Positions 2,873 through 62,379 of a stretch of 64,000 nucleotides of DNA are shown piece by piece. Below the pieces are notes generated by a model. The model worked only from the letters and a program-made list of their open reading frames with translations. It ran no database searches and was not told the origin of the DNA. The position numbers were made by a program, and so were the translations under genes. The stretch's first letter is position 1, and each line of letters opens with the position of its first letter. Source of the DNA: a virus; IMG/VR virus record IMGVR_UViG_3300030099_006533; one strand, written 5' to 3'.

Positions 2873-4240
2873 ATGAGAAAAAAGAATTATATTGTAGATA
2901 CTAGCGTGTATCTCACCAATGCCGAGGCAGTTTTTGATTTCGGACGACATGACATCATCGTACCTTTTAAAGTATTAGAAGAAGTCGACAAACATAAAAA
3001 AAGACAAGATCCGGTTGGCTCTCAAGCGCGTAAGTTTATTCGAATTTTAGATCAACTTCGTGAGAAAGGCTCTCTTGAGAAAGGGGTTCGTATTGATAAG
3101 GGCTTGGGCCTGTTATATACTCGCGGCCGCGGCTCAACAGACACATCTCTGCTACACCCGGATCTCGATCCTTCAGTGCCGGATCATGTGATTATTTCTA
3201 CTGCACTTACTGTAGCATCAGAAGACTCTTCACGGAAAACTATACTTGTTTCTCGTGACATTAACATGCGAGTTATTTGTGATGCTATTGGAATGCCAGC
3301 AGAAGATTATGTTGCAACCAAAGCGGTACAGGAACTAGAGCAGTTATATGCAGGTTTTGAAACTTATCTTGTAGATGATCAAACGGTAGATCAATTTTAT
3401 GCCGGTGACGAAGTATTTGTAGAGGACGAAGACTCAAAAAGGTTTTTTCCGAACCAATACTTGATGCTAGTTTCGAATGCTAATGAGAAAAAGTCCGCTC
3501 TTGCAAGATTTGTTTCTGAAAATACTCCTTTAAAAAAGTTGGTTCACGACAAACTACCTCTTTGGGGGGTCAGTGCCAGAAACAAGGAGCAGGCCTTCGG
3601 TATTGATTTGCTGATGGATCCCAGTGTCGAAGTTGTGTCCTTGATTGGCAAAGCCGGCTCCGGCAAAACGCTCTGTGCGCTCGCTGCAGGCCTTGAACAA
3701 GTTCTAGGGTCTGGTCTTCCTGCCAAGAGCACCCGAAGCCGCCACAACGCGCCTGAGCAGCGCTATACACGCATGATTGTCTCACGGCCTATCATGCCAA
3801 TGGGGAGGGACATTGGATTCCTTCCGGGCACGATGGAAGAAAAAATGCATCCATGGTTAATGCCGATTCAAGATAACCTACAATTTCTTGTAGGAAATGA
3901 TAGAATTATGTTAGAACAATACATGGAAAAGGGAATGATTGAAATTGAAGCACTGACTTATATTAGAGGTCGTTCAATTTCAAATGCGTACATAATTATT
4001 GATGAGGCGCAGAATTTAACTGCGCACGAAATCAAAACTATTATCACGCGTGCTGGTGAAGGCACAAAAATCGTTCTAACAGGCGATATTGAACAGATTG
4101 ATAATGCATATACAGATGAGACTTCTAACGGTCTTGCATATGCAATCGAAAAGTTTAAGTTTTATGATCTGTCAGGTCATATCACGCTTCGAAAGGGAGA
4201 GCGCTCAAAAGTTGCAACACTAGCCGCGAAAATTCTATAA
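2873..4240 (+). CDS. phoH: PhoH-family ATPase with N-terminal PIN domain (PhoH2/YlaK-like)
   Basis: PIN motifs YIVDTSV, VLEEVDKHK, LVSRDINMR; Walker A GKAGSGKT; GFLPG; RGRS; IIDEAQN; TGDIEQID. Confidence 0.95.
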   Translation: MRKKNYIVDTSVYLTNAEAVFDFGRHDIIVPFKVLEEVDKHKKRQDPVGSQARKFIRILDQLREKGSLEKGVRIDKGLGLLYTRGRGSTDTSLLHPDLDPSVPDHVIISTALTVASEDSSRKTILVSRDINMRVICDAIGMPAEDYVATKAVQELEQLYAGFETYLVDDQTVDQFYAGDEVFVEDEDSKRFFPNQYLMLVSNANEKKSALARFVSENTPLKKLVHDKLPLWGVSARNKEQAFGIDLLMDPSVEVVSLIGKAGSGKTLCALAAGLEQVLGSGLPAKSTRSRHNAPEQRYTRMIVSRPIMPMGRDIGFLPGTMEEKMHPWLMPIQDNLQFLVGNDRIMLEQYMEKGMIEIEALTYIRGRSISNAYIIIDEAQNLTAHEIKTIITRAGEGTKIVLTGDIEQIDNAYTDETSNGLAYAIEKFKFYDLSGHITLRKGERSKVATLAAKIL

Positions 4241-4251
4241 GGATTAGGCCG

Positions 4252-4749
4252 GTGGAAATTAGAATCGCCTTTTACAAGGGAAAAGGCAATTGGAAAAATA
4301 AGGTAATTCGGTGGTGGACGAAAAGTCCGTACAGCCATGCAGAGCTAGTATTGCCAGATGAGATTACCTGGGTGAGTATTTCACCATTCCTTACTTCTAC
4401 CGTGTCAGCAAGATCTGTTTATCAAGTTAAAAATTTAGAAGATTGGGACTTTTTAGATTTTGAATTAAGTTGGAGAGGCCCTGTTCAAGAATACCAAATT
4501 GAACAATTACATCATTTTATACAAGAAACAAATGGAGCAAAATACGACTGGCTAGGAATGATACTATCTCAAATGCTCCCTTACCTAATAAAACATAGAG
4601 ATAAGTGGTACTGCTCTGAGTGGATTGCACACGCGCTAGTAAAAGCCAGAGTCGTTAAATGGGACAAACTGCCAATCTACAAAACACCTAATTTGTCGCC
4701 CGGCAAGCTGTACGATCTACTAAAAGACTACAAACCAGACTACAAATAG
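4252..4749 (+). CDS. Permuted papain-like (NlpC/P60, YiiX-like) cysteine amidase
   Basis: His before Cys: YSHAELV ... GAKYDW ... WYCSEWIA ... SPGKL. Confidence 0.7.
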   Translation: MEIRIAFYKGKGNWKNKVIRWWTKSPYSHAELVLPDEITWVSISPFLTSTVSARSVYQVKNLEDWDFLDFELSWRGPVQEYQIEQLHHFIQETNGAKYDWLGMILSQMLPYLIKHRDKWYCSEWIAHALVKARVVKWDKLPIYKTPNLSPGKLYDLLKDYKPDYK

Positions 4750-4816: not shown

Positions 4817-5134
4817 ATGACAATTCATCAAAACATGTTTGACAACGCACAAAAAGAAAAAATTGATGCTGCTTTTGAAAATGAGCAGCCATGGCCTGAA
4901 GGTCCTTTAAAAGACCTTCTTTTGGAATATGTTGGTACAAAGAAAGAAACAGAAGAAGTAACTGTTGAAATGATTGTTGAGCAGCTAGCCGAAGAGTTTC
5001 CTGAGTTTTTGATGGTAGTAGCAGAAGAAAATTGGATCAGAGGATACCAACAGGCAATCCATGATGTTGACCAGGGACAAAAAATGTTAGCTGAGCAAGC
5101 TAAAGAAAACAAAGCGTGTTTGAATGAAGGATGA
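4817..5134 (+). CDS. Hypothetical protein
   Basis: 105-aa ORF with RBS, first gene after the sigma70 promoter. Confidence 0.8.
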   Translation: MTIHQNMFDNAQKEKIDAAFENEQPWPEGPLKDLLLEYVGTKKETEEVTVEMIVEQLAEEFPEFLMVVAEENWIRGYQQAIHDVDQGQKMLAEQAKENKACLNEG

Positions 5135-5840
5135 AAATACTGCTAATGGTTTAGTTGGTTACATTAAGAAAACTCTAGAAGAGTCAGCTAAGACCCGAAG
5201 AGAATATAGCCTATACGGTACATCGTATGTGTATGTACAGGATTTTTTGCCTGATAACGTAAACGTGGTTGATGTGCTACAAACGATAGAAGACATTGTC
5301 CCGGGCCACATGGTAAAAGAAGTGGACACTATTTTTATTGGAGATTACCAACATCTAAAAGATAAAGCCGTCACAGCCATGTATGATTCAGGCGCGATTT
5401 ATATTTCTAATGAACAAAAAAGCAATGATGATATGGTTGACGATTTAGTGCATGAGATTGCTCATTCATTGGAGCAGCCATACGGGTATGCTATTTATTC
5501 TGATGGTGTAGTAGAAAAAGAATTCTTAGGCAAGCGAATGAAAATGTATGAATTGCTTTCTGCTTACAACTTCGTATCACAAAATAGCAAATCTGCATTT
5601 ATGCAGGTAGAATATGATCATTATTTTGATGAGTTGTTGTATAAAAAAATTGGGTACGAGAGACTAGCCCAATTACTCGTAGGTGTCTATACTACACCAT
5701 ATGCAGCGACCTCGCTGCGCGAATATTTTGCCACAGGATTTGAAGATTATTTTCTTCATGATGGGGAATATCTTAAAAAAATTAGTCCAAGATTGTTTAA
5801 TAAGATTGACAAATTAGTAAAAGGAGTGTATGATGGATAA
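5124..5840 (+). CDS. Putative zincin metallopeptidase (HExxH; MtfA/lethal-factor-like C-terminus)
   Basis: LVHEIAH, and YAATSLREYFATGFEDYF supplying a third-ligand Glu. Confidence 0.65.
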   Translation: MKDENTANGLVGYIKKTLEESAKTRREYSLYGTSYVYVQDFLPDNVNVVDVLQTIEDIVPGHMVKEVDTIFIGDYQHLKDKAVTAMYDSGAIYISNEQKSNDDMVDDLVHEIAHSLEQPYGYAIYSDGVVEKEFLGKRMKMYELLSAYNFVSQNSKSAFMQVEYDHYFDELLYKKIGYERLAQLLVGVYTTPYAATSLREYFATGFEDYFLHDGEYLKKISPRLFNKIDKLVKGVYDG

Positions 5841-6172: not shown

Positions 6173-6946
6173 ATGAAGCCACATATTTCATTTAGTGAAC
6201 TCAAAGATTGGAATACATGCGCATTTTATCACAAGCTTGTGCATCATGATAAACTAAAAGGTTTTGTTGGTAACGAGTACACTGCTTTTGGAAGCGCTAT
6301 TCATACTATTTGTGAAAAAAAGCTGCTTTCAACAGTCACTATTCCTGAAGAAGAGTTGTTCATTATGGAAGTCGAGAAGGAAGTAGAAAAGCTTCTTTCA
6401 GATTCCGTACAGGTAAATGACAAGTTGATTTTTGATCTAAAGCGGCAAGGCACAAAGATTCTTCCGCAGATTGAGCCGGCCTTAAAGGAGTATTTTCCAG
6501 ATGGATATGAAATTCTTACAACTGAAGAAGAGCTTATGGTTCCGATTGAAGGAAGCCCCAAAAAATTTAAAGGATTTATTGATGTTGTACTTCGGACCCC
6601 CGATGGCAAAATTCACGTTATTGACTGGAAATCCTGCTCTTGGGGATGGGATGCTCGTAAGCGCGCTGATCCTATGGTTGTATATCAGCTAATTTTTTAC
6701 AAGCACTTTTACGCGTTAAAGCATGGACTTGATCCTGCAAATATTGAAACGCACTTTGCACTTCTAAAGCGCACCGCTAAAGAAAAGAATGTCGAATTCT
6801 TTAGAGTAACTTCTGGCCCAAAAAGAACAGAAAATGCTCTAAAACTTTTACAAAAAGCTTTGTATAATATTACAAATTCTCGATTTATCAAGAATAAGAG
6901 TTCATGTTCGCGCTGTGCTTTTAAAAATACTGAGCACTGTCCGTGA
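6173..6946 (+). CDS. PD-(D/E)xK nuclease, Cas4/AddB-like with Fe-S staple cysteines
   Basis: ISFSEL..W..C, GSAIH, GFID...IDWKS, YQL..Y, C-terminal CSRC-x7-C. Confidence 0.85.
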   Translation: MKPHISFSELKDWNTCAFYHKLVHHDKLKGFVGNEYTAFGSAIHTICEKKLLSTVTIPEEELFIMEVEKEVEKLLSDSVQVNDKLIFDLKRQGTKILPQIEPALKEYFPDGYEILTTEEELMVPIEGSPKKFKGFIDVVLRTPDGKIHVIDWKSCSWGWDARKRADPMVVYQLIFYKHFYALKHGLDPANIETHFALLKRTAKEKNVEFFRVTSGPKRTENALKLLQKALYNITNSRFIKNKSSCSRCAFKNTEHCP

Positions 6947-6963: not shown

Positions 6964-8229
6964 GTGACAAAAAAGACAATTCTGACAATGTCAGATCACC
7001 CGCTTAGCCCTAGTGGAGTAGGGACGCAGACAAATTATGTACTGCAAGCGTTGTTGGAAACTGGCCGCTATCGAGTAATTTCACTCGGAGGCGCTATCAA
7101 GCACAATGACTATACTCCACAAAAGATTGAACCATACGCAGATGATTGGGTGGTTTTTCCGATTGATGGATATGGAAATCCTGAGATCCTAAGATCAATT
7201 CTTAGAACTGAGCGCCCTGATCTAGTATGGTTCATGACAGACCCGCGATTTTATCAGTGGCTATGGGAAATGGAAGACGAAGTTCGCTCTCTATGTCCTA
7301 TGTTATACTATCATGTATGGGATAACTACCCTTATCCAAAGTTTAACAAGGTGTGGTACGAATCCAATGATGTGATTGCTTCTATTTCAAAAGTAACTCA
7401 CGATATTGTGCAAACCGTTGCGCCTAGTGTAGATGCACATTATGTACCTCATGCAGTAGCCGAACAAATTTTTAAGCCACTACCGCCAGAGCAAGTGGCC
7501 ACATACGCAGAAACTGTTTTGCGCGCGGGTGATGTTTGGCAAGATAAGTTAACGTTTTTCTGGAACAACCGTAATGCTCGTCGCAAGCAAAGCGGTTCAC
7601 TTATTTGTTGGTTTAAAGAATTTTTAGATATTGTCGGACACGACAAGGCAAGGTTGATTATGCACACGGATCCAAAAGATCCTAATGGTCAAGATCTAAA
7701 TGCAATCTTAAACAACTTAGGTCTCGTAAATGGAGAGGTCTACTTGTCAGTAGCAAAGGTTCCGCCTGAGCAGATGGCGCTTTATTATAATATGGCAGAC
7801 TGCACCATCAATATCTCAGATGCTGAAGGGTTCGGCTTGGCAACTCTTGAATCATTGTCTTGCGGAACCCCAATCATCGTAAATATGACTGGCGGCCTAC
7901 AGGAACAGGTAACAGATGGTGAAAACTGGTTTGGAATCGGTCTAGAGCCAACAAGTAAGTCAATTATTGGTTCACAACAGGTGCCTTACATCTATGAAGA
8001 TCGTCTTGATGCTGCATCAGTGGTAGGCGCTCTAAAGAAGATGTATGATATGACACCCGAAGAGCGCGCCATGTTAGGTCTTCAAGGAAGAAGCCATGTA
8101 TCGACAAACTACGGGTTTTCTGCTTTTAAAAAGCAATGGGTCGACTTAGTAGATCAAACAGTTGAAAAGTACGGCTCATGGGATACACGAAAAGGCTACC
8201 AGTCTTGGGACTTTATGGAGATTAAATAA
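6964..8229 (+). CDS. Glycosyltransferase, GT4 (GT-B)
   Basis: SDHP..PSGVGTQ, NNRNARRKQ, EGFGLATLES (E-x7-E). Confidence 0.92.
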   Translation: MTKKTILTMSDHPLSPSGVGTQTNYVLQALLETGRYRVISLGGAIKHNDYTPQKIEPYADDWVVFPIDGYGNPEILRSILRTERPDLVWFMTDPRFYQWLWEMEDEVRSLCPMLYYHVWDNYPYPKFNKVWYESNDVIASISKVTHDIVQTVAPSVDAHYVPHAVAEQIFKPLPPEQVATYAETVLRAGDVWQDKLTFFWNNRNARRKQSGSLICWFKEFLDIVGHDKARLIMHTDPKDPNGQDLNAILNNLGLVNGEVYLSVAKVPPEQMALYYNMADCTINISDAEGFGLATLESLSCGTPIIVNMTGGLQEQVTDGENWFGIGLEPTSKSIIGSQQVPYIYEDRLDAASVVGALKKMYDMTPEERAMLGLQGRSHVSTNYGFSAFKKQWVDLVDQTVEKYGSWDTRKGYQSWDFMEIK

Positions 8230-9536
8230 TGAAAAAGAAAGTATTACTTAGAGGGCCGATTCTTACACGGAGCGGCTATGGCGAACAAGCAAGATTTGCA
8301 TATAGGGCCCTAAAAAGTCAGCCTGATAAATTTGATGTATTTGTTGTCCCCACTGGTTGGGGAAAAACCGGATGGATTGTAGATGACTCACCTGAGAGAG
8401 AGGAATTGGATAAGAATATTATCTCTACTTCTGAACATATTAAGCATTGCAATACAGTCGGAACGAACCCGTTCGACATCGCTATTCAGGTCACAATTCC
8501 TCAAGAGTGGGAAAAGCTAGCATCGGTAAATATTGGTTTCACTGCAGGAACAGAGACCACACACATCTCACTTCCGTGGATGCAAAAAGCAAATGAAATC
8601 GACCGCATCATTGCAGTTTCAGAACACACAAAGTCTGGTTTTGTAAATACGGTGTACACCGGTCAAAATGAGTTTGGCCAGGAAGTTCAAGTCAACTGCA
8701 CTACTCCCGTAGATGTTGTAAACTTTCCAGCTAAGACGGAGACTTCTCCTACACCTATTGAGCTAGATGTTGACACAGAATTTAACTTCTTATCAGTAGT
8801 TCAGTGGGGTCCTCGCAAAAATCTTGAAAATACAATTCTTGGATTTATCGAAGAGTTTAGAGACGATGAAAATGTAGGCTTGGTTGTTAAGGCTAACTTC
8901 ATGAGGAATTCATTGGTTGACCGAAATCTCTGTGAAACGAGACTAAAAAAGCTTAAAGAGTCTGCTGGTGAACACAAATGTAAAATTTATTTGCTTCACG
9001 GAAACATGACAGACGAAGAAATGCTTGGCCTTTATACCAATAAGAATATTCATGCGTTTATTAATATTGCTCATGGAGAAGGGTTTGGGCTACCTATCTT
9101 TGAAGCAGCTTATAGCGGATTGCCAATTATTGCACCAAACTGGGGTGGCCAAAAGGACTTCTTGAATGCAAGAGTCACACGAACCTCAAAGCTAAGATCA
9201 GGCAAAAAGAAGTCTAAGACAAAGCATAAGTTTTTAGCAACAGATGTCGAATACAGAATTGCACCAATTCAAAAAGAAGCAGTATGGGAAAACGTGCTTA
9301 TTGAACAGTCAATGTGGTGCTACCCTGTCGCGACATCCTACAGAAAGGCTATGCGTACTGTTTTTAAGAACTATGACCGAGCCATTGGCAAGTCAAAAAC
9401 TCTAAAGGAAATTATCACCACAGAGTTCTCAGAACGCAAGCAAAATGAAAAGTTTGTTAACTCAGTTCTGGAAGCTGCAGCAATTAGTGGCAATGTAGCA
9501 ACTCCTGGCCTGACAGATCAGGTTGTTACCCTATGA
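8229..9536 (+). CDS. Glycosyltransferase, GT4 (GT-B)
   Basis: GP...SGYG, QW..RKN, HGEGFGLPIFEA; TAATG coupling. Confidence 0.92.
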   Translation: MKKKVLLRGPILTRSGYGEQARFAYRALKSQPDKFDVFVVPTGWGKTGWIVDDSPEREELDKNIISTSEHIKHCNTVGTNPFDIAIQVTIPQEWEKLASVNIGFTAGTETTHISLPWMQKANEIDRIIAVSEHTKSGFVNTVYTGQNEFGQEVQVNCTTPVDVVNFPAKTETSPTPIELDVDTEFNFLSVVQWGPRKNLENTILGFIEEFRDDENVGLVVKANFMRNSLVDRNLCETRLKKLKESAGEHKCKIYLLHGNMTDEEMLGLYTNKNIHAFINIAHGEGFGLPIFEAAYSGLPIIAPNWGGQKDFLNARVTRTSKLRSGKKKSKTKHKFLATDVEYRIAPIQKEAVWENVLIEQSMWCYPVATSYRKAMRTVFKNYDRAIGKSKTLKEIITTEFSERKQNEKFVNSVLEAAAISGNVATPGLTDQVVTL

Positions 9537-10771
9537 CAAAGAAGATTCTTTATCAAGGCCAGCTAGGAGACCCATCTGGCTATGCTGTTGCCGGACGCGG
9601 CTACTTGAAATGCCTTTCGGATTATATTGATACGTTAGAAGAGCAGGTTGATTTAAAGCTGTTGTCCATTAGTGCAGATCAAGCTAGCTCTTTAACAGAA
9701 GAAGAGGCTAAGTTTCTTAACCGTTTTACTTTTTCTACTCAAGAAGAATATGATAAATGGGTATCTGATGGAAATTACCATTATGCGTTTCATCACCCTC
9801 CGACGTATGCGGTAAAGATTCCATCAACACGGCCTGCCTCGGCAAAGTCACTTACAACAACTTGCTTGACAGTGTGGGAAACGGATTCTGTTCCAAACAT
9901 CTGGGGTGATATTTTAGAACATCTAGACGTTGATAAGGTCATTGTTCCTTGTGAGTGGAATAAGGAGACGTTTGATTCGTTCTTCGCGTCTAGAGAGGCA
10001 GAGACCCCAGTACAAGTGGTACCACACTTGATTAATGAGACATTTATCGAAAATGACAAAATTGCGGAGGTTGCGGATGTCATTAAGGAAGATGAGTTCA
10101 CCGTATTAACAGTAGGCCAGTGGACAGACAGAAAGGCACTACAAAATGTTATTAAGTCTTTTTACATGGAGTTTAAAGAAACCCCGGAAGCAACTTTGAT
10201 TGTTAAGACATACGGCAATATTCAGGACACCCGCGCCGAGTATCAAGAGTATCAAAAAAATGAAATGCTAAGAGAGATCAAGAAGATCAAAAATTCTATG
10301 CTTACAGAGGATATGAATACTCCAAAATGTAAGCTGCATTTCTTGTATGGGCTTTTTCCAAAAGAGCAGATGAATTATCTTTATAAAGAAAGCAACCTAT
10401 TTGCTCTTCTAAGTAGGGCCGAGGGTTTTGGATTACCAATCGCAGAAGCACTTGCAAACGAAACACCAGTGCTGGTACACAACCAGGGAGGTCACGTCGG
10501 GTTTACAGATTTTGAGTCTAATTTTATAGTAAACTGCTACAAGACTCCTTCTTACTGCACGGTGTTTCCTCTTGTATACACTTGTGACAGCAACTGGTTT
10601 GAAACAGACTATCACTCTGCTAGAGAACAGTTTAGGAATGCTTTCGACGCATGGAAAGATGGGACTCTTTCCTCTCGTGCTACTACGGCCAAAAATTGCA
10701 TGTTTGAAGTTACAGCAGATAGCGTAAAGCTAGGAAAGCTTATCTACGACACAATTGTTCAGGAGCAGTAA
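9533..10771 (+). CDS. Glycosyltransferase, GT4 (GT-B)
   Basis: GQLGDPSGYA, VWETD, QWTDRKA, RAEGFGLPIAEA. Confidence 0.9.
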   Translation: MTKKILYQGQLGDPSGYAVAGRGYLKCLSDYIDTLEEQVDLKLLSISADQASSLTEEEAKFLNRFTFSTQEEYDKWVSDGNYHYAFHHPPTYAVKIPSTRPASAKSLTTTCLTVWETDSVPNIWGDILEHLDVDKVIVPCEWNKETFDSFFASREAETPVQVVPHLINETFIENDKIAEVADVIKEDEFTVLTVGQWTDRKALQNVIKSFYMEFKETPEATLIVKTYGNIQDTRAEYQEYQKNEMLREIKKIKNSMLTEDMNTPKCKLHFLYGLFPKEQMNYLYKESNLFALLSRAEGFGLPIAEALANETPVLVHNQGGHVGFTDFESNFIVNCYKTPSYCTVFPLVYTCDSNWFETDYHSAREQFRNAFDAWKDGTLSSRATTAKNCMFEVTADSVKLGKLIYDTIVQEQ

Positions 10772-11548
10772 ATGCTGCAGCAAACGAGAAGCATCAGGAC
10801 GTCCCTGAATGATATGCAGGACTATAAGCAAAAGATTGATTTTTTGCACAACTGTTATCATCAAAAAGATTGCTTTCTGTTGGCTCCTGGCCCATCTTTG
10901 GGCCATGTAGACCCTAAGCAAGTCAAAGAGAAGGTAGAGGAGCGGAGAGCTGCCGTATTCACTGTAAAGCAGGCATACTTAGAATACAAGAGCATGGCTG
11001 ACTTTCATTTCATCAATGATTGTAATCTGCCAATGATTAACGGATATCCGGGCTATATGTACAGCGCTAAGCGTGGTCCCGTCGTGATTGCGTCTAGTGG
11101 ATACACTGAAGAACATGCCCGCACAAGGTTTGCACCCGCACAACACTGGGACGTGTTTTGTAGGGTTCTAGATCCATTGGTATATCCAAACAATAACCTT
11201 GGGCGACTTTGTGAGAATTATGAGTTTGAGCGCGGCACATTCGACAAGATGATCGAAAGACCGTGTGGGCCAAGCATCACAATGGAAACCGTTATCTATA
11301 TGGCGGTTCATTGTGGGATCAAAAACATCTATGCAATTGGATGGGATTCTGGCTCAAAAGTTGGAGAGCACTTCTACGAAGGTGAAACCCATTTGACAAG
11401 TAATCGTAATTTTGAATACGAAATGGTACAAAAAGGCTCTGGGCCATTGTATAATTGGCTTAAGCAAAGAAATATTAACCTTCGCTTGGTTAGCAAAGTA
11501 AGTGCACTAAGCGATGAAATACCTCGCATCAAATTAAAGGATATCTAA
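10772..11548 (+). CDS. Maf/DUF115 (MptE-like) fold protein, putative nonulosonate transferase
   Basis: FLLAPGPSL, GPSITMETVIYMA..CG.KNIYAIGWD. Confidence 0.7.
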   Translation: MLQQTRSIRTSLNDMQDYKQKIDFLHNCYHQKDCFLLAPGPSLGHVDPKQVKEKVEERRAAVFTVKQAYLEYKSMADFHFINDCNLPMINGYPGYMYSAKRGPVVIASSGYTEEHARTRFAPAQHWDVFCRVLDPLVYPNNNLGRLCENYEFERGTFDKMIERPCGPSITMETVIYMAVHCGIKNIYAIGWDSGSKVGEHFYEGETHLTSNRNFEYEMVQKGSGPLYNWLKQRNINLRLVSKVSALSDEIPRIKLKDI

Positions 11549-12378
11549 TGTCTACATATATTATTGCTGAAATTGGAATTAATCACAATGGCTCACTCGA
11601 CATCGCAAAGCGACTTATCGATATTGCCGCTGTTGCTGGTTGCGATGCTGTAAAGTTTCAAAAGAGAAACCCAGACGTTTGTGTGCCGGAACATCAAAAG
11701 CACACCATGAGAGATACACCATGGGGCAGAATGACTTATCTTGATTACAAGTATCGTGTCGAGTTTGGCAAAGAAGAGTATGATGAGATTGATGCATATT
11801 GCCGTGATAAGGGAATTGCTTGGTCTGCTTCTCCTTGGGATATGGATAGTCTAGAGTTTTTAGGTCAATACGATTTGCCCTTTATTAAGGTGCCGTCTGC
11901 AATGATTACAAATGAAGAGTTGATGCGAGGTTGTGCGCGAACAGGAATGAAGGTGATTTTCTCAGCAGGAATGTCGACGCTTGATGAAACTGATCAGGCC
12001 GTCGAGTGGATGCGACAAGAAGGGGCAGAGTTTGCCCTACTGCACTGCAATTCAACATACCCAGCGCCACTAGAAGATTTGAATTTGCGATGTATTCAAA
12101 CTCTTCGTGAACGTTATGATTGCGAAGTTGGATACAGTGGCCACGAGTTTCGACTGGGCACTACTGTAGCCAGTGTATATCTTGGTGCGAGCATTCTTGA
12201 AAGGCACATTACATTAGACCGAACAATGTGGGGTTCTGACCATTTAGCGTCTGTAGAGCCGCAGGGGCTGATTAAGCTTGTAAAGGGTGTTAGGGAGCTA
12301 GAGGTGGCTCTTGGTGACGGCGTAAAGCGAGTTACTGAAGGTGAACTGCCAGTTCGAAAGAAGTTAAGAGGTGACTAG
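11548..12378 (+). CDS. neuB: NeuB-family nonulosonic (sialic) acid synthase, short form without C-terminal SAF domain
   Basis: IIAEIGINHNG, DAVKFQKR, HCNSTYP, GYSGHE, ERHITLD..MWGSDH; ends at 276 aa. Confidence 0.95.
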   Translation: MSTYIIAEIGINHNGSLDIAKRLIDIAAVAGCDAVKFQKRNPDVCVPEHQKHTMRDTPWGRMTYLDYKYRVEFGKEEYDEIDAYCRDKGIAWSASPWDMDSLEFLGQYDLPFIKVPSAMITNEELMRGCARTGMKVIFSAGMSTLDETDQAVEWMRQEGAEFALLHCNSTYPAPLEDLNLRCIQTLRERYDCEVGYSGHEFRLGTTVASVYLGASILERHITLDRTMWGSDHLASVEPQGLIKLVKGVRELEVALGDGVKRVTEGELPVRKKLRGD

Positions 12379-13093
12379 ATTGCAAGAGTGTTTTGTCCAT
12401 CATAGAGCGACAGTCCCGTTTCCACAGTGGGTGGTGCGGGATGCATCTTTATTGTTTAAAGGCTTTTGCCCAAATGCTGTGGTGAATGAACACATAGCAT
12501 ACAGTGACCGCGACGAATTTAAACAGTATTTGGGAACTACAGTTCTTATTATGGGTGGTGGCCCATCTACATTATCTTTAGATTTACAGCAGGAAGAGTA
12601 CGATTATCTGTGGACTTGCAATCATTTTTTTCGAAATCCTAAGTTGCAAAGTACTAAGGTAGACTTAGCAATGCTGATGGCCGAGGTCGATCCTTCGGAC
12701 GAGAAACTGATACAGTATAGAGAAACATTTCGGCCACTGTTAGGTTTTGAGGTACATGATAAGTGGTTCAATTACGAGTTTGACGATTACGATAAATATT
12801 TTTTTATGCATTCTAACTTTTATGGCCGCTTAGGTATCGGAGTTAGGATGATTCTTTTCGCCTCAGCCATCGGCGCCTCAACAGTTAAGTTTTGTGGTTT
12901 CGATGGGTTTAAGCCAATATATGAAGGAAACCATGCATTTCAACCCGGCAAAACTACGCTGCCATCAAACTTTTCAGAGCAGCAGTACCTTCAGCAGTAT
13001 GACTACTTTTGGCAGTACGCGCAACACTTTAACCCAAATACAAAGTACATCAATTTAGGAGGCGGCAGTGACTTACATAAAAGCATTAGATGA
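12371..13093 (+). CDS. CstII/GT42-like sialyltransferase-fold protein
   Basis: VLIMGGGPS, WTCNHFF, GVRMILFA.AIG...VKFCGFDG resemble the CstII pattern GNGPS/RCNQFY/GVYM...GIDFY (recalled, not aligned). Confidence 0.65.
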   Translation: MTRLQECFVHHRATVPFPQWVVRDASLLFKGFCPNAVVNEHIAYSDRDEFKQYLGTTVLIMGGGPSTLSLDLQQEEYDYLWTCNHFFRNPKLQSTKVDLAMLMAEVDPSDEKLIQYRETFRPLLGFEVHDKWFNYEFDDYDKYFFMHSNFYGRLGIGVRMILFASAIGASTVKFCGFDGFKPIYEGNHAFQPGKTTLPSNFSEQQYLQQYDYFWQYAQHFNPNTKYINLGGGSDLHKSIR

Positions 13094-13760
13094 TGTGGCC
13101 GTAATTATCCAAGCTCGGCTAGGTTCTCAAAGAGTACCCCAAAAGATGATTCGTCCGTTTGCCGATACTACCCTAACAGACATTGCGCTAGAAAAGATTA
13201 AAAAATGTACAAGTTTTCCACAAGAAAACTTTTACTTGTCTGTGCATGAACCTGAATTACTTAAAATTGGTGAAAAGCATAACGTTAATATCTACCGTCG
13301 ATCAGAAAAATCAGCCAAGTCAGAAGGTACGCCTATGACAGATATGTACGAATGGTGGGATAAATTGCCTCATAAATATTGTGTGCTAGTAAACGCCTGT
13401 GCTCCGTTTCTAACTTCAAAAACAATCGACACGTTTGTCAGGACATACTCATACACAGAATCAGATGGAATGTTTGGCGTAATTAGAAAAAAGAATTACT
13501 TTTGGAATTTCAACAAGGATCTGATAACTCCACTAACGGAAGCGGTGATGAATACCAAAACGGTTGCACCAGTGTATGAAGCCGCACATTGTCTCTATGC
13601 CGGTAGACTAGACAGAATTAAAGAAGGAATATGGATGGGAGACTTTAATATTCCCGGTGATATTAAACTGTTTCAAATGGAAGAGCAAGAAGTTTTTGAC
13701 ATTGATTATGAATGGCAATTTACAATGGCTGAAAGTTTATACATGTGGAATAACAAGTGA
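13068..13760 (+). CDS. neuA: CMP-nonulosonate (acylneuraminate) cytidylyltransferase
   Basis: IIQARLGSQRVPQKMIRPF, RRSEKSA, terminal FDIDYEWQF; GGAGG RBS, GTG start. Confidence 0.88.
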   Translation: MTYIKALDDVAVIIQARLGSQRVPQKMIRPFADTTLTDIALEKIKKCTSFPQENFYLSVHEPELLKIGEKHNVNIYRRSEKSAKSEGTPMTDMYEWWDKLPHKYCVLVNACAPFLTSKTIDTFVRTYSYTESDGMFGVIRKKNYFWNFNKDLITPLTEAVMNTKTVAPVYEAAHCLYAGRLDRIKEGIWMGDFNIPGDIKLFQMEEQEVFDIDYEWQFTMAESLYMWNNK

Positions 13761-14893
13761 AAATTTTATTGTTAAATGATACAATCATATCAAAAAATTT
13801 AGGTTGTCAATTAGTGTCTCACATGCTAAGAGACACCTTTAAGCAAGTGTATGATGAGGTTGAAATAACTTTTGTCAACACACTACAAAAGAGTTATCTT
13901 GAGCAGCGCTCAAAGTTTAAAAAAGAATATGATGTGGTTTATGTTAATGGGGAAGGTTCTATGTCCGCCGGCGGCGAATTAAAACTTTACGAAGCTGTAA
14001 AAGCGTCTTTGAAACGAGCCCCTGCAGTGTATCTGTGCAATTTTACGTTCGACCCCAGAGTTCAGTTTCAAAATTTTGTGCGCCGCGGAGAGATATCAAA
14101 ATGGCTTTCTGTGTTTAAACACTGTAAGGCCGTCACTGTGCGAGACCCAATATCATATGAATTTTTAAAGAATGCCGGCGTAAATAATTTGTACCTAGCA
14201 CCAGATATAGGAACAGCTATATATGATTTAAGTGAAAAAAAGCAGAAGAATGTTAGAAAAAGAATTATGTTCGGCGCCGGCTCTTTTACTAAAAGTTCAC
14301 TTTTTAATAGTGAAAAAAATGTTAACAATTTTTCTAAAATTATAAATCATTTTGCTCAAAAAGGATACGAGTGCGACATCCTTGATTGGCCCTCAAATCC
14401 TGTGTCCGATGGACAATTTTTAAGAGGCATTAAAGGACCAAACATATTTCACAAAAAATTAAATTTTCAAGATTATTACGAAAATTGTAAAGACTCACTT
14501 TTAAATGTAACTGGTCGCCATCACGGTAGTGTTATGAGTTATGCTGCTAGTTGCCCCTTTATGACTTATAAAAGTAATATGTGGAAAACAGAAGGAGATT
14601 TAATGTTTTATCAAGGTTCTATGCAAGACTATTGGTTGCAAGCCGACATTAAAAATTTTAACACCGACCAATGGATTGCAAAAATTGAACACAATCTTAA
14701 TAGGTATGAAGAGATATGTGAACAAAATCGTCGCATATTTTCCTTTTTGTCTCAATATCATTTAGATCAAGTAAAGATTGTAAAAGAAAGTATCTACCCG
14801 ATAGCCCAATCAGAAGAACTTTCAAAATGTATGCAGGAAGCAAATAGATATTTGCTAAATTTGACTCAAAACGGAAAAATGCTATCATGGTAA
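13757..14893 (+). CDS. Polysaccharide pyruvyltransferase-family protein
   Basis: NLGCQL, NGEGS, VTVRD..SY..L, APD, GRHHG; noticeably AT-rich. Confidence 0.75.
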   Translation: MKILLLNDTIISKNLGCQLVSHMLRDTFKQVYDEVEITFVNTLQKSYLEQRSKFKKEYDVVYVNGEGSMSAGGELKLYEAVKASLKRAPAVYLCNFTFDPRVQFQNFVRRGEISKWLSVFKHCKAVTVRDPISYEFLKNAGVNNLYLAPDIGTAIYDLSEKKQKNVRKRIMFGAGSFTKSSLFNSEKNVNNFSKIINHFAQKGYECDILDWPSNPVSDGQFLRGIKGPNIFHKKLNFQDYYENCKDSLLNVTGRHHGSVMSYAASCPFMTYKSNMWKTEGDLMFYQGSMQDYWLQADIKNFNTDQWIAKIEHNLNRYEEICEQNRRIFSFLSQYHLDQVKIVKESIYPIAQSEELSKCMQEANRYLLNLTQNGKMLSW

Positions 14894-15792
14894 TTGATTC
14901 AAAACGGTGGGTAACCGATAAAGAGTGTGAGTTTTACTGCGGCCAGCAGAAGGCAATTAATCGTTATAACGCTAAGATTACTGAAAGAAGAGAGAAATAT
15001 AAACAGTTTAATCATGAAGGGCTTGAAAAATACCAAGACGTAATCGATAGCATCAATACAAAAGGATATGCCAAGATTGAAAACTTTTTTGATTTAAAAC
15101 AACTAGATCTTTTGGCAAATGAATTTAGACAAAAACTTAAAACTGGTGAGCACATTAAAAGCGTTCAAGCCGGAAGCCATCTGCAACTTGATCAGCCCTT
15201 TTTAAATTCTGATTATGTCCTTGATATCGCACTGGACGAACGTCTTGTAGACATTGCGACAACTTACTACAGATGTACCCCAGCGCTAGGAACTTGCAAT
15301 CTCAGAAGATCGGACGTAAGATACACTAAAAACAACGGCACAAATAAGTTTCATAGAGACTTCAATAGCCCTGTAAAATTCATAAAGTTTTTTGTGTACT
15401 TAAATGATGTCAACAAAGACAATGGGCCCTTTACTTACGTGAAGGGTTCTAATATCAAGATGCCGCGTAATTGGCAGCTGCAGCATAGATGGGAAGATTC
15501 TCAAATTGTACAAATGTATGGCTCTGAATCAATTGTGCATCTGACAGCAAACTACGGAGATCTGTTAATTGCAACAACAAACGGATTTCACAAGGGTAGC
15601 CAGATTACTAAAGGTACTAGAGACATGCTGACCTTAAATTATGTGATAGCACCAGAGGTCAGAAATCAGAGCGTTGACGAAGAGTCAAAAAGATTTTTAA
15701 TAAGCAAAGAACAATTTAAGTCTCTCGAAGATTGGCAAGTCCCATTAGTAGACTTTTTAAATGTGGAAGGTACAACAAATGAATTACATTGA
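14887..15792 (+). CDS. 2OG-Fe(II) dioxygenase, PhyH family
   Basis: FHRD, IKFFVYLNDV..DNGPF.YVKGS, GDLLI....GFHKG...R. Confidence 0.85.
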   Translation: MVIDSKRWVTDKECEFYCGQQKAINRYNAKITERREKYKQFNHEGLEKYQDVIDSINTKGYAKIENFFDLKQLDLLANEFRQKLKTGEHIKSVQAGSHLQLDQPFLNSDYVLDIALDERLVDIATTYYRCTPALGTCNLRRSDVRYTKNNGTNKFHRDFNSPVKFIKFFVYLNDVNKDNGPFTYVKGSNIKMPRNWQLQHRWEDSQIVQMYGSESIVHLTANYGDLLIATTNGFHKGSQITKGTRDMLTLNYVIAPEVRNQSVDEESKRFLISKEQFKSLEDWQVPLVDFLNVEGTTNELH

Positions 15793-16123
15793 AGAGCGTC
15801 CTTGGGGCAAGTTCGAAAACCTATTGGACACAGACTACTGTAAGGTAAAAAGAATCACAGTAAATCCTGGCCAGCGTCTAAGCTACCAATATCACCACCA
15901 GCGCGGCGAGGTATGGACAGTAGTCAAAGGTGTTGCCAAGGTGACACTAGACGATGCTGAAGGCTGGTACATCGAGGGCGAAGTAATTCAAATTCCAATT
16001 GGTGTACGCCATCGCGTCGAAAACGATACCGAACATGAATTGATTTTTATCGAGGTGCAACACGGAACCTACTTTGGTGAAGACGATATTGTTAGACTAA
16101 GTGACGATTATAACAGAGAATAA
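15779..16123 (+). CDS. Stand-alone cupin, type II mannose-6-phosphate isomerase C-terminal domain-like
   Basis: EERPWG, VKRITVNPGQRLSYQYHHQRGEVW, HRVEN, EVQHG.YFGEDDIVR..DDY. Confidence 0.9.
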   Translation: MNYIEERPWGKFENLLDTDYCKVKRITVNPGQRLSYQYHHQRGEVWTVVKGVAKVTLDDAEGWYIEGEVIQIPIGVRHRVENDTEHELIFIEVQHGTYFGEDDIVRLSDDYNRE

Positions 16124-16125
16124 AT

Positions 16126-16154
16126 TTTAAAAATAAAACAATATCGTTTATAAT
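16126..16154 (+). promoter_or_regulatory. Possible sigma70 promoter
   Basis: TTTAAA, 17 nt, TATAAT (16149-16154), intergenic; weak -35. Confidence 0.45.
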
Positions 16155-16172
16155 GTATTAAAGGAAAATAAT

Positions 16173-16478
16173 ATGATTGTTTTTATTGACATTGATGAGA
16201 CAATTGCTAACACACCTGAAAGCAGAGACTATTCTTTATCTACGCCGATTGTAGAGAATATCCAAAAAGCTAATAAGTATTATGAAAACGGTCACACAGT
16301 GGTTTACTGGACAGCCCGCGGCACGGGTAGTGGAATCGACTGGTATGAAGTAACCAAAAAACAACTTGATGCCTGGGGCGTTAAGTACCATGATTTAAAA
16401 TTGGGAAAACCAATTTATGATTTGTTCATTGACGATAAAGCAATGAATCCCGCACATTGGAAAAAGGAGCAAAAATGA
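16173..16478 (+). CDS. Small capless HAD-family phosphatase (capsule-biosynthesis phosphatase-like)
   Basis: DIDETIA (DxDxT), WTARG, GKP.YDLFIDD. Confidence 0.85.
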   Translation: MIVFIDIDETIANTPESRDYSLSTPIVENIQKANKYYENGHTVVYWTARGTGSGIDWYEVTKKQLDAWGVKYHDLKLGKPIYDLFIDDKAMNPAHWKKEQK

Positions 16479-16971: not shown

Positions 16972-17323
16972 CCTATCTGTCCAAGCGGCCGTAATATTAG
17001 GTGTAATTTTACTAGCATCTTTAGCAATAAATGGATTGCTAATTTATTATACGCGCATTTCTTTAGTTAAGTTCGCATCAGTATCTGAAGGAATTGGCTC
17101 GCTCAAAGATTCTATTACTGCGTTTGCGGTGCATTTAAAATATGTTTATGAACTAGAAATGTACTATGGAGACGAAACGCTGCAAGCGCTGATTGATCAT
17201 GCAAGAGATTTGTCTGCTTCATTTGACGAATATGAAGAGTTCTATGACTTGTTTGATTTACCAGCACAAGACGATGTAGAAGAGATGGAGGAGCCCGAAG
17301 ATGGCACGCAGACGCAGGAGTAA
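16961..17323 (+). CDS. Membrane-anchored hypothetical protein
   Basis: N-terminal hydrophobic helix, acidic tail. Confidence 0.75.
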   Translation: MTISLSVQAAVILGVILLASLAINGLLIYYTRISLVKFASVSEGIGSLKDSITAFAVHLKYVYELEMYYGDETLQALIDHARDLSASFDEYEEFYDLFDLPAQDDVEEMEEPEDGTQTQE

Positions 17324-17993
17324 AAACTCTAAACAGTATTTTACAGTTGAGCACGAGCAGGCGATTATTAAATACGTTGCTACGCAAGACTTGAGGGAGC
17401 GCACATACCTGTACGAAAATTGGATAGGCCCAGCATTTTCAGAGATGGTCGATAAGATTTGCTACACTTATAATTTCACCAACTTGTCTAATGTAGATGA
17501 GTTAAGGGAAGAATGCAAGATTTGGCTAACAACAATTTTAGACAAATACGATGCTTCAAGAGGAAAAAAGGCATTTTCGTATTTCTCTGTAATTACAAAA
17601 AATTGGTTTATTCATAAAGTAAAGAAGCAGCAAAAGCAAAAGATAAGAGAAACAGATATTGATTCTGTACCAATGCAGACACAGTTGGATCATATGTCAA
17701 CTGTTAATCAATACATGCCACACAGAATGGAGCTTGAATTCTGGAACCTATTGTGGAAAGAGATGGAATCATGGGATGTCGAGACGATGAGGGGCAACGA
17801 GCGCAAGGTTTACGAAGCCATTAAGATTTTGCTAGCGAACCCAGACGACATCGAAATTTTTAACAAAAAAGCTATTTACCTTTACCTGCGTGAGATTACG
17901 GGCCTGAATACCAAGCAAGTTGTAAACAACTTGAACAAGATGAGGAAGCGTTATCGAACGTTTAAAGGTAAATGGGATCAAGGCGAGTTATGA
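17301..17993 (+). CDS. Phage RNA polymerase sigma factor (gp55-like, probably late)
   Basis: KYDASRGKKAFSYFSVITKNWF resembles sigma region 2 (gp55 NPFAYFTQI type); C-terminal helix-turn-helix-like segment; lies just before the structural module. Confidence 0.65.
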   Translation: MARRRRSKNSKQYFTVEHEQAIIKYVATQDLRERTYLYENWIGPAFSEMVDKICYTYNFTNLSNVDELREECKIWLTTILDKYDASRGKKAFSYFSVITKNWFIHKVKKQQKQKIRETDIDSVPMQTQLDHMSTVNQYMPHRMELEFWNLLWKEMESWDVETMRGNERKVYEAIKILLANPDDIEIFNKKAIYLYLREITGLNTKQVVNNLNKMRKRYRTFKGKWDQGEL

Positions 17994-28573: not shown

Positions 28574-28966
28574 ATGGGTTTTGATGCAACACTGCCTTTA
28601 ATTGCCGGCGGTCTAAATGGATTTTTATTAGTTGAAGGCATGGAAGAGGCTGTCAAGCAAGATTTTTTAATTTTGTTAATGACTGAGCCGGGCGAACGAA
28701 CAATGGATCCAGACTTTGGAGTGGGACTGAAGAAATACTTATTTCAAAATCTCACAAGGGATGTTTTTGGGCATATTGAAAACAGAATTAAAAGTCAAAC
28801 TCTCAGATACATGTCTTTTCTTACGATTGAAAACATATCGTTTGCTAGCGCACTGGATACTCCCGCTAACAGTATGCTATCAGATATTGAAGAAAACAAA
28901 CTTTCTATCTCAATAACATATTCATATGGTCATGGAATTGTAGATGAAATAACTGTTTCGCCGTAG
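28574..28966 (+). CDS. Baseplate wedge gp25/gpW-like protein
   Basis: LLMTEPGER.MDPDFGVGL..YLF. Confidence 0.9.
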   Translation: MGFDATLPLIAGGLNGFLLVEGMEEAVKQDFLILLMTEPGERTMDPDFGVGLKKYLFQNLTRDVFGHIENRIKSQTLRYMSFLTIENISFASALDTPANSMLSDIEENKLSISITYSYGHGIVDEITVSP

Positions 28967-28992
28967 TATTTATAAAACCAGAGCTATTTATC
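28966..28992 (+). promoter_or_regulatory. Tandem putative late-promoter motifs GTATTTATA / CTATTTATC
   Basis: Two copies (28966, 28984) in the 42-nt gap before the gp6-like gene. Confidence 0.5.
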
Positions 28993-51917: not shown

Positions 51918-51942
51918 CTATTTACAATTGTCACTATTTATA
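51918..51942 (+). promoter_or_regulatory. Tandem putative late-promoter motifs CTATTTAC / CTATTTATA
   Basis: Two copies (51918, 51934) in the gap before ATG 51962. Confidence 0.5.
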
Positions 51943-62000: not shown

Positions 62001-62169
62001 CACTGCCTTAGATGAAGACAATATGGAAGGCTTTATTCGCATTTTGGAACTAATTAAGGTGTACTTCAAGAATGTCTTGTTGATTTCGCATCTCGATTCT
62101 CTTAAGGATTGTGTAGACATGCAAATCGTTATAGACAAGAACAACGGGTACGCCAAAATTAACCAGTAA
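59017..62169 (+). CDS. Fused Mre11/SbcD nuclease - Rad50/SbcC ATPase (gp47-gp46-like)
   Basis: ADTH, HCGD, GNHD, YHG, GDIH phosphoesterase motifs; Walker A GKNYSGKSS; Q-loop SSQHG; coiled coils; ASGAE; LDEP; ISH. Confidence 0.95.
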   Translation: MKIAHIADTHIKNLKYHYEYRVVFEQLYETLRNEKVDYIVHCGDIAHTKTQISPEFVELCTDFFRNLAAIAPTYIILGNHDGNLKNSSRQDALTPIADALNCNRLHLLKNSGETVVSDSLTLNVLSVFDQDNWVKPSDDSKINVALYHGAISGVSTDIGWVMDHGEHDVGIFEHHDFAMLGDIHKTNQVLDHEGRVRYCGSTVQQNHGETNDKGFLIWDIRSKDDFTVKHHVLLNPKPFITIELTPKGRMPKGTSVPDGARLRLVSNNNLPLSKMKKAVDIAKHRFSPESITFLNRAAGERGNVEDLANELKTEDLRDPAIQKKLIAEYLKDYEVDEIMMERVQNLNAHYNRVVEESEEVGRNINWKLRRVEWDNLFNYGSDNAIDFDKVNGIIGIFGKNYSGKSSVVDSILYTMFNTTSKNERKNLNIINQNKNDCRGKLELSVGERKYSIERTSQKYIKRLKGEETLEAKTDLNFEVACEATGEIESLNGLSRMETDRNIRKHFGTLEDFLISAMSSQHGALSFIDEGSTRRKEIIAKFLDLEVFEKKFKLAKEDASDTRGALRRLDGRDYDQEITEAQEDLEANVQEMETQKSLCAVLKSDIEKLTNDIAEVSLKIDSIPAEIIDVVKVKSELAVARNKKIAVVDTNKENREKRKQNEEMYEKINNFLETFDLEDLEKKSGEIDALAGQISEAQALHSNEVAELERHRRKSALLEGIPCGTSFPSCKFIKDAHVAQTRIPISETQIAEINESLAALQTELEAYEPHRVQEHLLKHKKVLERKVLVSNTIADLNLEIEKNKLASEKLHHEIKRLTAQLDEYDQNKEAIENLEELTSTQKSLTLNLTSKNNQLDACEEQILELVKTNGSLEQKVVAIREDKKERLDLQEEFAAYDLFMRCMHSNGIAYDIIKKKLPVINQEIAKVLTNITNFEVFFEDNGKKFDIFIKHPKHDARPIEMASGAEKTMGAMAIRLAMLSVSSLPKGDLFVLDEPGTALDEDNMEGFIRILELIKVYFKNVLLISHLDSLKDCVDMQIVIDKNNGYAKINQ

Positions 62170-62184: not shown

Positions 62185-62379
62185 ATGATGGCAGCAGCAA
62201 AAGCAAAGTTAGATAGACTAGTAGAGAAGATGATTTCTCGTAAATTTATGGTATGGCTAACAGCTACAGGGCTAATGGTGTTTGCAGGACTAGAGTCCTC
62301 AGACTGGGTTATTATTTCAGGTATTTATATCGGCGGCCAGACCGTCATCGATGGAATCGCAAAGCTTAAAGGTGTATAG
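62185..62379 (+). CDS. Small two-TM protein, putative holin
   Basis: GGAGG RBS before ATG 62185; SRKFMVWLTATGLMVF and WVIISGIYIGGQ helices. Confidence 0.55.
   Translation: MMAAAKAKLDRLVEKMISRKFMVWLTATGLMVFAGLESSDWVIISGIYIGGQTVIDGIAKLKGV

Follow-up and report, generated by a model that had tools for sequence, protein, structure and literature searches.

A predicted phage-encoded pathway for a nonulosonate-type sugar at an exchangeable locus of T4-like phages

Nonulosonic acids count as hallmarks of the cell surface, where they are found in host mimicry by pathogens, flagellin glycans, lipopolysaccharide (LPS) and wall polymers. To our knowledge, glycosylation by a virus's own enzymes has been demonstrated in giant viruses and a few mycobacteriophages only, and never with nonulosonic acids. 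What, then, would a bacteriophage do with genes for making and transferring such a sugar? The question is raised by the virus record IMGVR_UViG_3300030099_006533 of IMG/VR, of which a stretch of 64,000 nucleotides (hereafter, the window) was analysed, and specifically by the gene island at positions 6964 to 16478. The original prediction, made from the DNA alone, was that of a nonulosonic (sialic) acid synthesis and glycosylation island. Our analysis supports the greater part of this proposal, namely, that the phage encodes a route that makes, activates with cytidine monophosphate (CMP) and transfers a nonulosonate-type sugar, together with hexosyl transfer and pyruvylation, but the sugar is probably not sialic acid proper. 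The interpretation that we favour, with slightly better than even confidence, is that the phage encodes in this island a glycan factory that works wholly in the cytoplasm and follows a Kdn-type route, and that the acceptor of the glycan is most likely a protein.

The literature searched yielded no paper on phage-encoded nonulosonate synthesis, which is consistent with the suggestion that the system is undescribed; UniProt contains MptE-like proteins of uncultured phages, which are uncharacterised. The finding combines two known kinds, bacterial glycosylation with Kdn and other nonulosonates and virus-encoded glycosylation. Its significance is that a set of genes for synthesis, activation and transfer that looks complete is present, in a serotype-like locus, in a phage lineage that is abundant in the ocean.

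The island and its enzymes

The island consists of eleven open reading frames (ORFs) on the plus strand; the first ten overlap by 1 to 32 nt or abut, as originally proposed, and the eleventh follows after a gap of 49 nt (Table 1). As judged from these ORFs, eleven intact, predicted soluble enzymes make up one translationally coupled block. The family assignments also proved correct, eight of them by Pfam or NCBIfam matches, with the Maf-like, CstII-like and HAD proteins recovered by profile, fold or motifs. Among the profiles that had been suggested for checking the families, PF03102, CTP_transf_3 (PF02348) and PS_pyruv_trans scored above their cutoffs and PF01973 below (19.8 bits against 34.6, for the Maf-like protein). 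All checkable catalytic motifs are intact and conserved over 80 related viral loci, which are the best 80 loci with NeuB relatives (68-91% identical to the window NeuB) among at least 296 IMG/VR contigs that encode such relatives. Related viral and cellular loci are denoted below by L numbers and whole relatives by G numbers; G001, a complete 204-kb genome with direct terminal repeats (DTR) that is collinear with the entire window, serves as a proxy for the complete genome of the window phage.

Table 1. Genes of the island and the two conserved genes that flank it
Feature	Positions	Strand	Support
PD-(D/E)XK nuclease, conserved left flank, outside island	6173..6946	+	PF12705 62.6 bits
GT4a, retaining GT-B glycosyltransferase, left-end anchor of slot	6964..8229	+	PF00534 46 bits
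GT4b glycosyltransferase	8229..9536	+	PF00534 31 bits
GT4c glycosyltransferase	9533..10771	+	PF00534 48 bits
Maf/MptE-fold (sialyltransferase-like) protein, 258 aa, candidate nonulosonate transferase	10772..11548	+	fold match
SAF-less NeuB-family ulosonate (phosphate) synthase, 276 aa	11548..12378	+	PF03102 261 bits (cutoff 22.1)
CstII-like (GT42-fold) protein, 240 aa, candidate nonulosonate transferase	12371..13093	+	profile and fold
Divergent CMP-ulosonate synthetase (NeuA/PseF-like)	13068..13760	+	PF02348 46.3 bits (cutoff 22.6)
Polysaccharide pyruvyltransferase, optional cargo	13757..14893	+	PF04230 67.5 bits (cutoff 25.3)
PhyH-family Fe(II)/2-oxoglutarate dioxygenase, optional cargo	14887..15792	+	PF05721 45 bits
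Type II mannose-6-phosphate isomerase (PMI) cupin, optional cargo	15761..16123	+	PF01050 109 bits
Minimal capless HAD phosphatase, 101 aa, right end of island	16173..16478	+	four HAD motifs
gp55-like late sigma factor, conserved right flank, outside island	17301..17993	+	PHROG 234 4.4e-8

The three GT4 glycosyltransferases, all of which score above the PF00534 cutoff, each carry the EGFGLxxxE form of the EX7E motif (residues 288-296 in GT4a, 284-292 in GT4b and 297-305 in GT4c), and R200 and K201 of GT4c are invariant. GT4a and GT4c also weakly match PF20706, 'GT4 in conflict systems' (28-29 bits).

The Maf-like protein was modelled with AF2 from 33 relatives (pLDDT 88), and the top PDB match of the model in Foldseek is Magnetospirillum Maf (5MU5, at 9.6e-6), followed by MptE and CstII; the TM-score, normalised to the 632-aa 5MU5 target, is 0.23. 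The likeness to Maf flagellin O-glycosylation systems (Campylobacter, Aeromonas and Magnetospirillum 5MU5) would lie in the predicted central fold, which is sialyltransferase-like and of the MptE/DUF115 kind, in the cytoplasmic use of CMP-nonulosonates and in the lack of a lipid carrier, whereas the phage protein is much shorter than the approximately 600 aa of Maf, has no flanking flagellin-binding domains, scores below the Pfam cutoff and, in most phage relatives, has its domain fused to GT4. No flagellin gene was met in the window or in G001, in which no dedicated flagellin search was made.

These fusions of GT4c with the MptE domain, 650-700 aa in length, are present in 25 of 45 distinct relatives. 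They resemble the capsule polymerases of Neisseria meningitidis W and Y, which we take to combine a GT4 hexosyltransferase with a sialyltransferase domain, and by this analogy, the architecture suggests alternating addition of hexose and ulosonate; the Neisseria enzymes differ in that their sialyltransferase domain belongs to another family and in that the two halves are separate genes in the window. A prediction of a complex of GT4c with the Maf-like protein scored 0.21, against a mark of 0.32, and counts neither for nor against such a complex. At positions 10769-10774 of the window, the two genes are separate and abutting, as they are in the two nearest relatives, L002 and L006, and the split looks like a feature of this sub-clade.

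The CstII-like protein has no match in Pfam, NCBIfam or PHROG. A profile of 32 sequences of its family matches CstII (7.6e-8), CstI (1.2e-6) and Pasteurella Lst (2.2e-5), and Foldseek matches the AF2 model (pLDDT 92.5) to MptE, CstII and the animal sialyltransferase ST8SiaIII with a probability of 1.0. The features shared with Campylobacter CstII and CstI (GT42) and with Lst are the predicted fold and, in the profile match, the motifs GxGPS, D..F.CN and A..LG..I.L.G.D; in the CMP-binding GxGPS motif, G62, G64 and P65 are invariant or nearly so. The phage family differs from these enzymes in that the His188 region is unaligned, in the lack of a Pfam match and in the presence of several paralogues per phage island. 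Comparison of the CstII-like and Maf-like families with hhalign (E 8.8e-5, probability only 60%) hints at a link between the two.

Among the tailoring enzymes, the pyruvyltransferase aligns with positions 1-274 of the 280 in the PF04230 model and matches CsaB at 1.4e-10, and the PhyH protein has the HxD motif at 156-158. The cupin additionally scores 119 bits with the C-terminal domain of TIGR01479. The NeuA-like protein has the N-terminal ARxGS...K motif in the form ARLGS and PQK, and matches PseF at 1.5e-9 and, in PDB, PpNeuA (9T4Z, the best match, at 2.3e-9) and mouse CMAS (5e-5). The HAD protein has no Pfam match; its motifs comprise D6, D8 and T10, T47, K79 and D88, and the corresponding DxDxT, T, K and DD positions are invariant in 26 sequences. 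It matches a 'capsule biosynthesis protein' in PDB (9IQW) at 1.4e-23 and, under the cutoff, the capsule biosynthesis phosphatase model TIGR01689 (28.7 bits, 1e-6).

The ulosonate synthase and its probable product

Which sugar, then, would the island make? The window NeuB retains the equivalents of N. meningitidis NeuB residues Glu25, Lys53, Gln55, Lys129, Ser132, Tyr186, Ser213, His215, Glu234, His236 and Asp247. These equivalents, among which are all the residues for the metal (with His215 and His236 as its ligands) and for phosphoenolpyruvate (PEP), do not vary among 80 viral and 81 cellular orthologues. The equivalent of Glu134 is Met in the window protein and Met, Ser or Leu across the subfamily, which also differs from canonical NeuB in having Trp for Phe112 and Ser for Asn184. 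Furthermore, the window protein stops short of the SAF domain that gives Arg314 to the sugar pocket. Every one of these viral and cellular orthologues likewise has a non-acidic residue at the Glu134 position and lacks both the SAF domain and Arg314. The window protein also fails the cutoff of the NeuB equivalog TIGR03569 (268.7 against 399.65 bits, over model positions 1-274 of 329). SAF-less NeuBs occur in environmental bacteria (PMC8208679), and PDB entry 6NCS is one of them. The UDP-GlcNAc 2-epimerase NeuC (PF02350) is absent in the five relatives searched, and Pfam finds neither NeuC nor Pse/Leg amino-sugar genes among the island proteins of the window.

The documented route to Kdn starts with mannose-6-phosphate and PEP and proceeds via Kdn-9-phosphate (Kdn-9-P) and Kdn to CMP-Kdn (PMC6200933). 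The pathway described in Bacteroides thetaiotaomicron (BT1713-BT1715) and Prymnesium parvum (PMC6200933) shares with the phage island a NeuB-family synthase, a HAD phosphatase, a CMP-ulosonate synthetase and the absence of NeuC; moreover, a source of mannose-6-phosphate is adjacent in the phage island, and the best PDB match of the phage NeuA-like protein is PpNeuA. The phage cluster differs in that it is virus-encoded and joined to five transferases, in that its substrate specificity is a prediction, and in that its phosphatase is a capless EcbF/BcbF-like HAD rather than one of the KdsC/BT1713 type.

Because the synthase is SAF-less and fails the equivalog cutoff, NeuC is missing, and a phosphatase and a PMI cupin are partners of NeuB, a phosphorylated, Kdn-9-P-like route appears likelier than one to Neu5Ac. 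The set of cupin, NeuB, HAD and NeuA encoded in the window would fit the documented Kdn route, and gene context, namely, the adjacent PMI cupin and a NeuB-cupin fusion in a relative, suggests that the SAF-less NeuB may be specific for mannose-6-phosphate. This fusion, a 487-aa protein at L005:12232-13695, consists of a second NeuB paralogue and a sugar-isomerase cupin (Cupin_2, with weak matches to lyxose and mannose-6-phosphate isomerases), and apparently links the isomerase directly to ulosonate synthesis. The SAF-less NeuB and the miniature HAD together represent a compact candidate route to Kdn-type sugars.

The closest cellular NeuB, with 70% identity, is encoded in the Marinimicrobia metagenome-assembled genome (MAG) MED764 (L081:7980-11204), in an operon with a cytidylyltransferase, a Kdo-transferase-like GT30 protein and a phosphatase, which among the NCBIfam models matches best the Kdn-9-P phosphatase NF058599 (152 bits, under the cutoff of 180). 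KdsA (TIGR01362) was undetected in this 1.7-Mb MAG; in this lineage, a NeuB-made ulosonate may replace Kdo in the LPS core, or the MAG may be incomplete. In Streptomyces, NeuB orthologues (58% identity) adjoin a cytidylyltransferase-HAD fusion, and their neighbours are unrelated to the phage transferase families. Such company of the cellular synthases favours the Kdn-type route, as does the retention of HAD and NeuA in most of the 80 phage loci.

The resemblance of the trio of NeuB, cytidylyltransferase and phosphatase to such cellular operons, together with the frequent presence of auxiliary metabolic genes in the T4-like phages of the sea, is what would be expected if the genes were a plain metabolic booster that tops up a host pathway, for example, with CMP-Kdn for the LPS core or a wall polymer of the host, without a phage-specific glycan being made. 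We consider this improbable, given that the trio is accompanied by five transferases, a pyruvyltransferase and a dioxygenase. Besides, the tailoring cargo differs between the near-identical phages represented by the window and L002 (91% identity for NeuB and 93% for NeuA), which is unexpected for simple flux support.

Several observations weigh against the Kdn-type reading and the enzyme roles that it assigns. The Marinimicrobia operon includes a Kdo-transferase-like gene in a MAG without detected KdsA, and an 8-carbon, Kdo-like product is possible. The QAT motif of the NeuA-like protein is partly replaced and reads NAC. The HAD, being of a different type from KdsC/BT1713, has no match to NF058599 either, and owes its predicted role as the ulosonate-phosphate phosphatase to gene association; the cupin is present in just 12 of the 80 loci. 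Finally, the alignment of the CstII-like protein with CstII ends at residue 185, before the catalytic His188, and the 32-sequence family contains no invariant His.

Under the Kdn-type scheme, which remains our preferred one, the PMI cupin would supply mannose-6-phosphate, and the SAF-less NeuB would join the phosphorylated sugar with PEP to yield an ulosonate phosphate, most likely Kdn-9-P. The small HAD would then take off the phosphate, and the NeuA-like enzyme would form the CMP-sugar. This activated sugar would be transferred by the Maf-fold and CstII-like proteins, with hexoses added by the three GT4 enzymes and the product decorated by the pyruvyltransferase and the PhyH dioxygenase. The expected outcome is a short, doubly acidic glycan.

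A fixed slot with exchangeable cargo

Is the island a regular part of the phage genome? The window phage carries seven tRNAs and genes for PIN-PhoH, the gp55-like sigma factor, a gp6-like wedge protein, an SbcD-SbcC fusion and giant structural proteins. The exact protein sequence of its NeuB is present on 46 contigs, and the island has the identical gene order on a 170-kb Tara Oceans contig and a similar one in 20 further places, in agreement with the synteny that the original prediction called for. The island is not special to the window phage. Mis-assembly or mis-binning of host DNA into a phage contig might have been suspected from the slightly lower GC content at 14-16 kb (0.37 against approximately 0.42) and the bacterial type of the island enzymes. 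However, the same gene order recurs across 21 independent assemblies and the DTR-complete genome, the island is translationally coupled to phage core genes at both sides, and the flanks are kept in 55-58 of the 80 viral loci. Given the shared order on independent assemblies and the collinearity with the complete G001, such an artefact is effectively excluded and we assign it a negligible probability.

No cultured phage resembles the window phage: a megablast search of the island against 50,697 GenBank phages gave zero matches, and a tblastn search with NeuB gave only three records, with 26-45% identity.

Over the 80 loci, the conserved order runs from the PD-(D/E)XK nuclease through GT4a, GT4b, GT4c, Maf-like, NeuB and CstII-like to NeuA; next come a variable block, the HAD and, finally, the sigma region. 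The nuclease gene is directly upstream of GT4a in 55 of the 80 loci, and the sigma gene, whose position downstream of the island had been correctly recognised at the outset, is separated from the island by three small conserved ORFs. The sigma-gene clade is represented on more than 598 IMG/VR contigs. NeuA is kept in 74 of the 80 loci, GT4b in 58, HAD in 52 and PhyH in 33. None of the 80 loci has the pyruvyltransferase; elsewhere in the clade, relatives of it with 40-43% identity are encoded at this slot. GT4a is 58-73% identical in relatives, and two complete members of the clade that lack NeuB (G008 and G009) keep it at 58-63% identity.

The variable block may contain a second NeuB, this one with a SAF domain, accompanied by genes of Pse/Leg type for a dehydratase, an aminotransferase, a GNAT protein and a formyltransferase. 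It may also contain additional cytidylyltransferases, transferases of the GT2 and GT8 families, methyltransferases, sulfotransferases and a RuBisCO-like protein. The slot thus behaves like an O-antigen locus, with a conserved first enzyme, GT4a, and a diversifying remainder. Bacterial O-antigen and capsule loci similarly have a fixed slot, conserved flanks, a conserved first gene and cargo that is quickly swapped by recombination, but the phage slot lacks Wzx/Wzy, an ABC transporter, a priming transferase and a ligase.

Two relatives illustrate the range of the cargo. In G008, the slot upstream of the sigma gene (L187:2705-8310) holds genes for sulfotransferase-like and GT10 fucosyltransferase-like proteins, a DegT aminotransferase, an FdtA-like isomerase, an epimerase, an Mpo1-like protein and a methyltransferase. 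In the G001 island (L163:4729-5913), a 394-aa protein similar to the RuBisCO large subunit (PF00016, 2.9e-33) is encoded between methyltransferase and sulfotransferase-like genes; it may have been co-opted for making the glycan, as a sugar-phosphate enzyme of the form IV type.

The acceptor of the glycan and other genes of the window

To what would the glycan be attached? Ten of the eleven island proteins are without a predicted transmembrane segment. The eleventh, the CstII-like protein, is hydrophobic in one stretch (residues 154-172), which its globular model places in a helix and a strand that are both buried. Initiating phosphoglycosyltransferases of both superfamilies (PF02397 and PF00953) are absent in five relatives. 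G001, the one complete relative screened for membrane proteins, encodes no flippase-, polymerase- or ligase-like multi-pass protein, its only multi-pass membrane protein being the tape measure. With priming and export genes missing, any lipid-linked assembly would rely wholly on host enzymes. In L072, L074, L076, L077 and L078, at approximately 3200-4470, a protein of 375-397 aa is encoded upstream of the islands; it has four or more hydrophobic segments and could be an acyltransferase or polymerase-like.

The acceptor is most likely a protein made during infection, considering the lack of an enzyme that primes a lipid carrier and the fact that the closest structural relative of one of the transferases, the Maf-like protein, is a protein O-glycosyltransferase. 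A protein acceptor is favoured by the soluble enzymes, the Maf-type fold, the presence of GT4a across the clade and the precedent of mycobacteriophages and giant viruses; the conservation of GT4a across phages that presumably have different hosts suggests an acceptor that is constant among the phages. Glycans have been described on the capsids and tail tubes of mycobacteriophages (Freeman et al. 2023, PMC10527164, as cited in PMC12619734) and on the fibrils of Mimivirus (PMC9614988). Like the phage island, these systems comprise virus-borne soluble glycosyltransferases and sugar-nucleotide enzymes in clade- or strain-specific gene sets; they differ in employing neutral or amino sugars, with no known nonulosonate, and attachment to the virion is shown there and inferred here.

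The virion proteins of the phage itself are the leading candidates for the acceptor, with a likelihood that we put a little short of even. If the glycan is on the virion, views of adsorption, of particle stickiness and decay in seawater and of sugar measurements on viral particles would change. A more elaborate version, possible although on balance doubtful, is that this globally distributed clade of marine and freshwater T4-like phages with genomes of 160-200 kb has 'serotypes', in which GT4a primes a phage protein and the swappable cargo adds strain-specific acidic glycans, in the present case, Kdn-terminated and pyruvylated ones; a fibre, baseplate or capsid decoration protein would be the candidate acceptor. 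If this version is true, the window phage would represent the first nonulosonate-coated bacteriophage particle, and its slot an O-antigen-like diversifying locus in a virus.

The original prediction pointed, in support of a sialylated virion surface, to giant Ser/Thr-rich proteins encoded downstream of the island. The description is valid for the 4031-aa protein (17.7% Ser+Thr) but not for the 2634-aa protein, whose 11.2% we judge, without a reference set, to be near ordinary composition; some smaller structural proteins reach 19-20%. The virion reading is accordingly weakened by an enrichment that is limited to some of the neighbouring structural proteins and leaves out the 2634-aa giant. CstII-type enzymes act on lipooligosaccharide, which fits a host-surface target and is a further difficulty for a protein acceptor.

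Such a target is central to the alternative of host-surface remodelling, whereby soluble transferases would modify precursors of the host's LPS core, lipooligosaccharide, capsule or S-layer on the inner side of the membrane, and host flippases and ligases would export the product, the altered surface blocking superinfection or the sticking of progeny to debris. The 240-aa protein is closest in sequence to CstII and Lst, which sialylate lipooligosaccharide, and the nearest cellular NeuB operon, with its Kdo-transferase-like gene, is an LPS-core context. The quick turnover of cargo at a fixed slot beside host-recognition genes would also fit a receptor arms race, and the same idea has been proposed for pelagimyophage glycosyltransferases (PMC7029224). 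We nevertheless regard host-surface remodelling as unlikely, although worth keeping in view, because of the missing priming transferase (in five relatives) and flippase-, polymerase- and ligase-like proteins (in G001), because the Maf fold is known solely from protein glycosylation, and because the conserved GT4a suggests a phage-constant acceptor. If it does apply, the island would represent a new class of receptor-masking system.

DNA modification, which had been listed as another alternative, lost ground. Glycosylation of phage DNA is exemplified by the glucosylation of T-even phages and by the oligosaccharide-modified thymidines of SP-15-like phages, and the transferases of the island could, in principle, attach a glycan to a modified base as a protection from restriction. 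The weak PF20706 matches of GT4a and GT4c and the nuclease and PhoH genes that border the island would be compatible with such a function. However, a ThyA-type hydroxymethylase (PF00303) and a C5-methyltransferase (PF00145) are absent in five relatives, including three with a completeness of 94% or more, which makes DNA glycosylation of the known kinds unlikely; a search for Tet/JBP gave no match, with an uninformative control. Moreover, the clade assembles readily from ordinary short-read metagenomes, and we know of no DNA modification that uses CMP-ulosonates. Phage transferases that make diverse DNA glycans are described (PMC12686479; Pyle et al. 2024, as cited in PMC12619734), but, all in all, DNA hypermodification appears very improbable.

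A few further observations concern the regulation and the surroundings of the island. The T4 late-promoter motif TATAAATA is not enriched, and scans for sigma-70 promoters and terminators gave results near background. The sequence [CG]TATTTA[TC], a candidate phage promoter element, tends to lie in the 60 nt before gene starts: this holds for 5 of its 13 sites in the window, and in G001 for 13 of 36, where 2.2 would be expected; sites in the window are located at 28966-28991, 51918-51941 and 62321-62328. Its interpretation as a late promoter was rejected: it precedes structural genes and also the gene for a DnaB-like helicase. The baseplate genes lie beyond the slot on the late-sigma side.

Between the PhoH and nuclease genes, at 5124-5840 of the window, a 238-aa protein that is conserved in the clade has sub-threshold matches to metallopeptidases (ATLF, 26.4 bits, and Peptidase_M90) and is probably a small zinc peptidase. 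At 59017-62169, a single ORF of 1050 aa comprises an SbcD-like part (residues 1-466) and an SbcC-like part (298-1049), that is, a fused version of the T4 gp47/gp46 nuclease pair.

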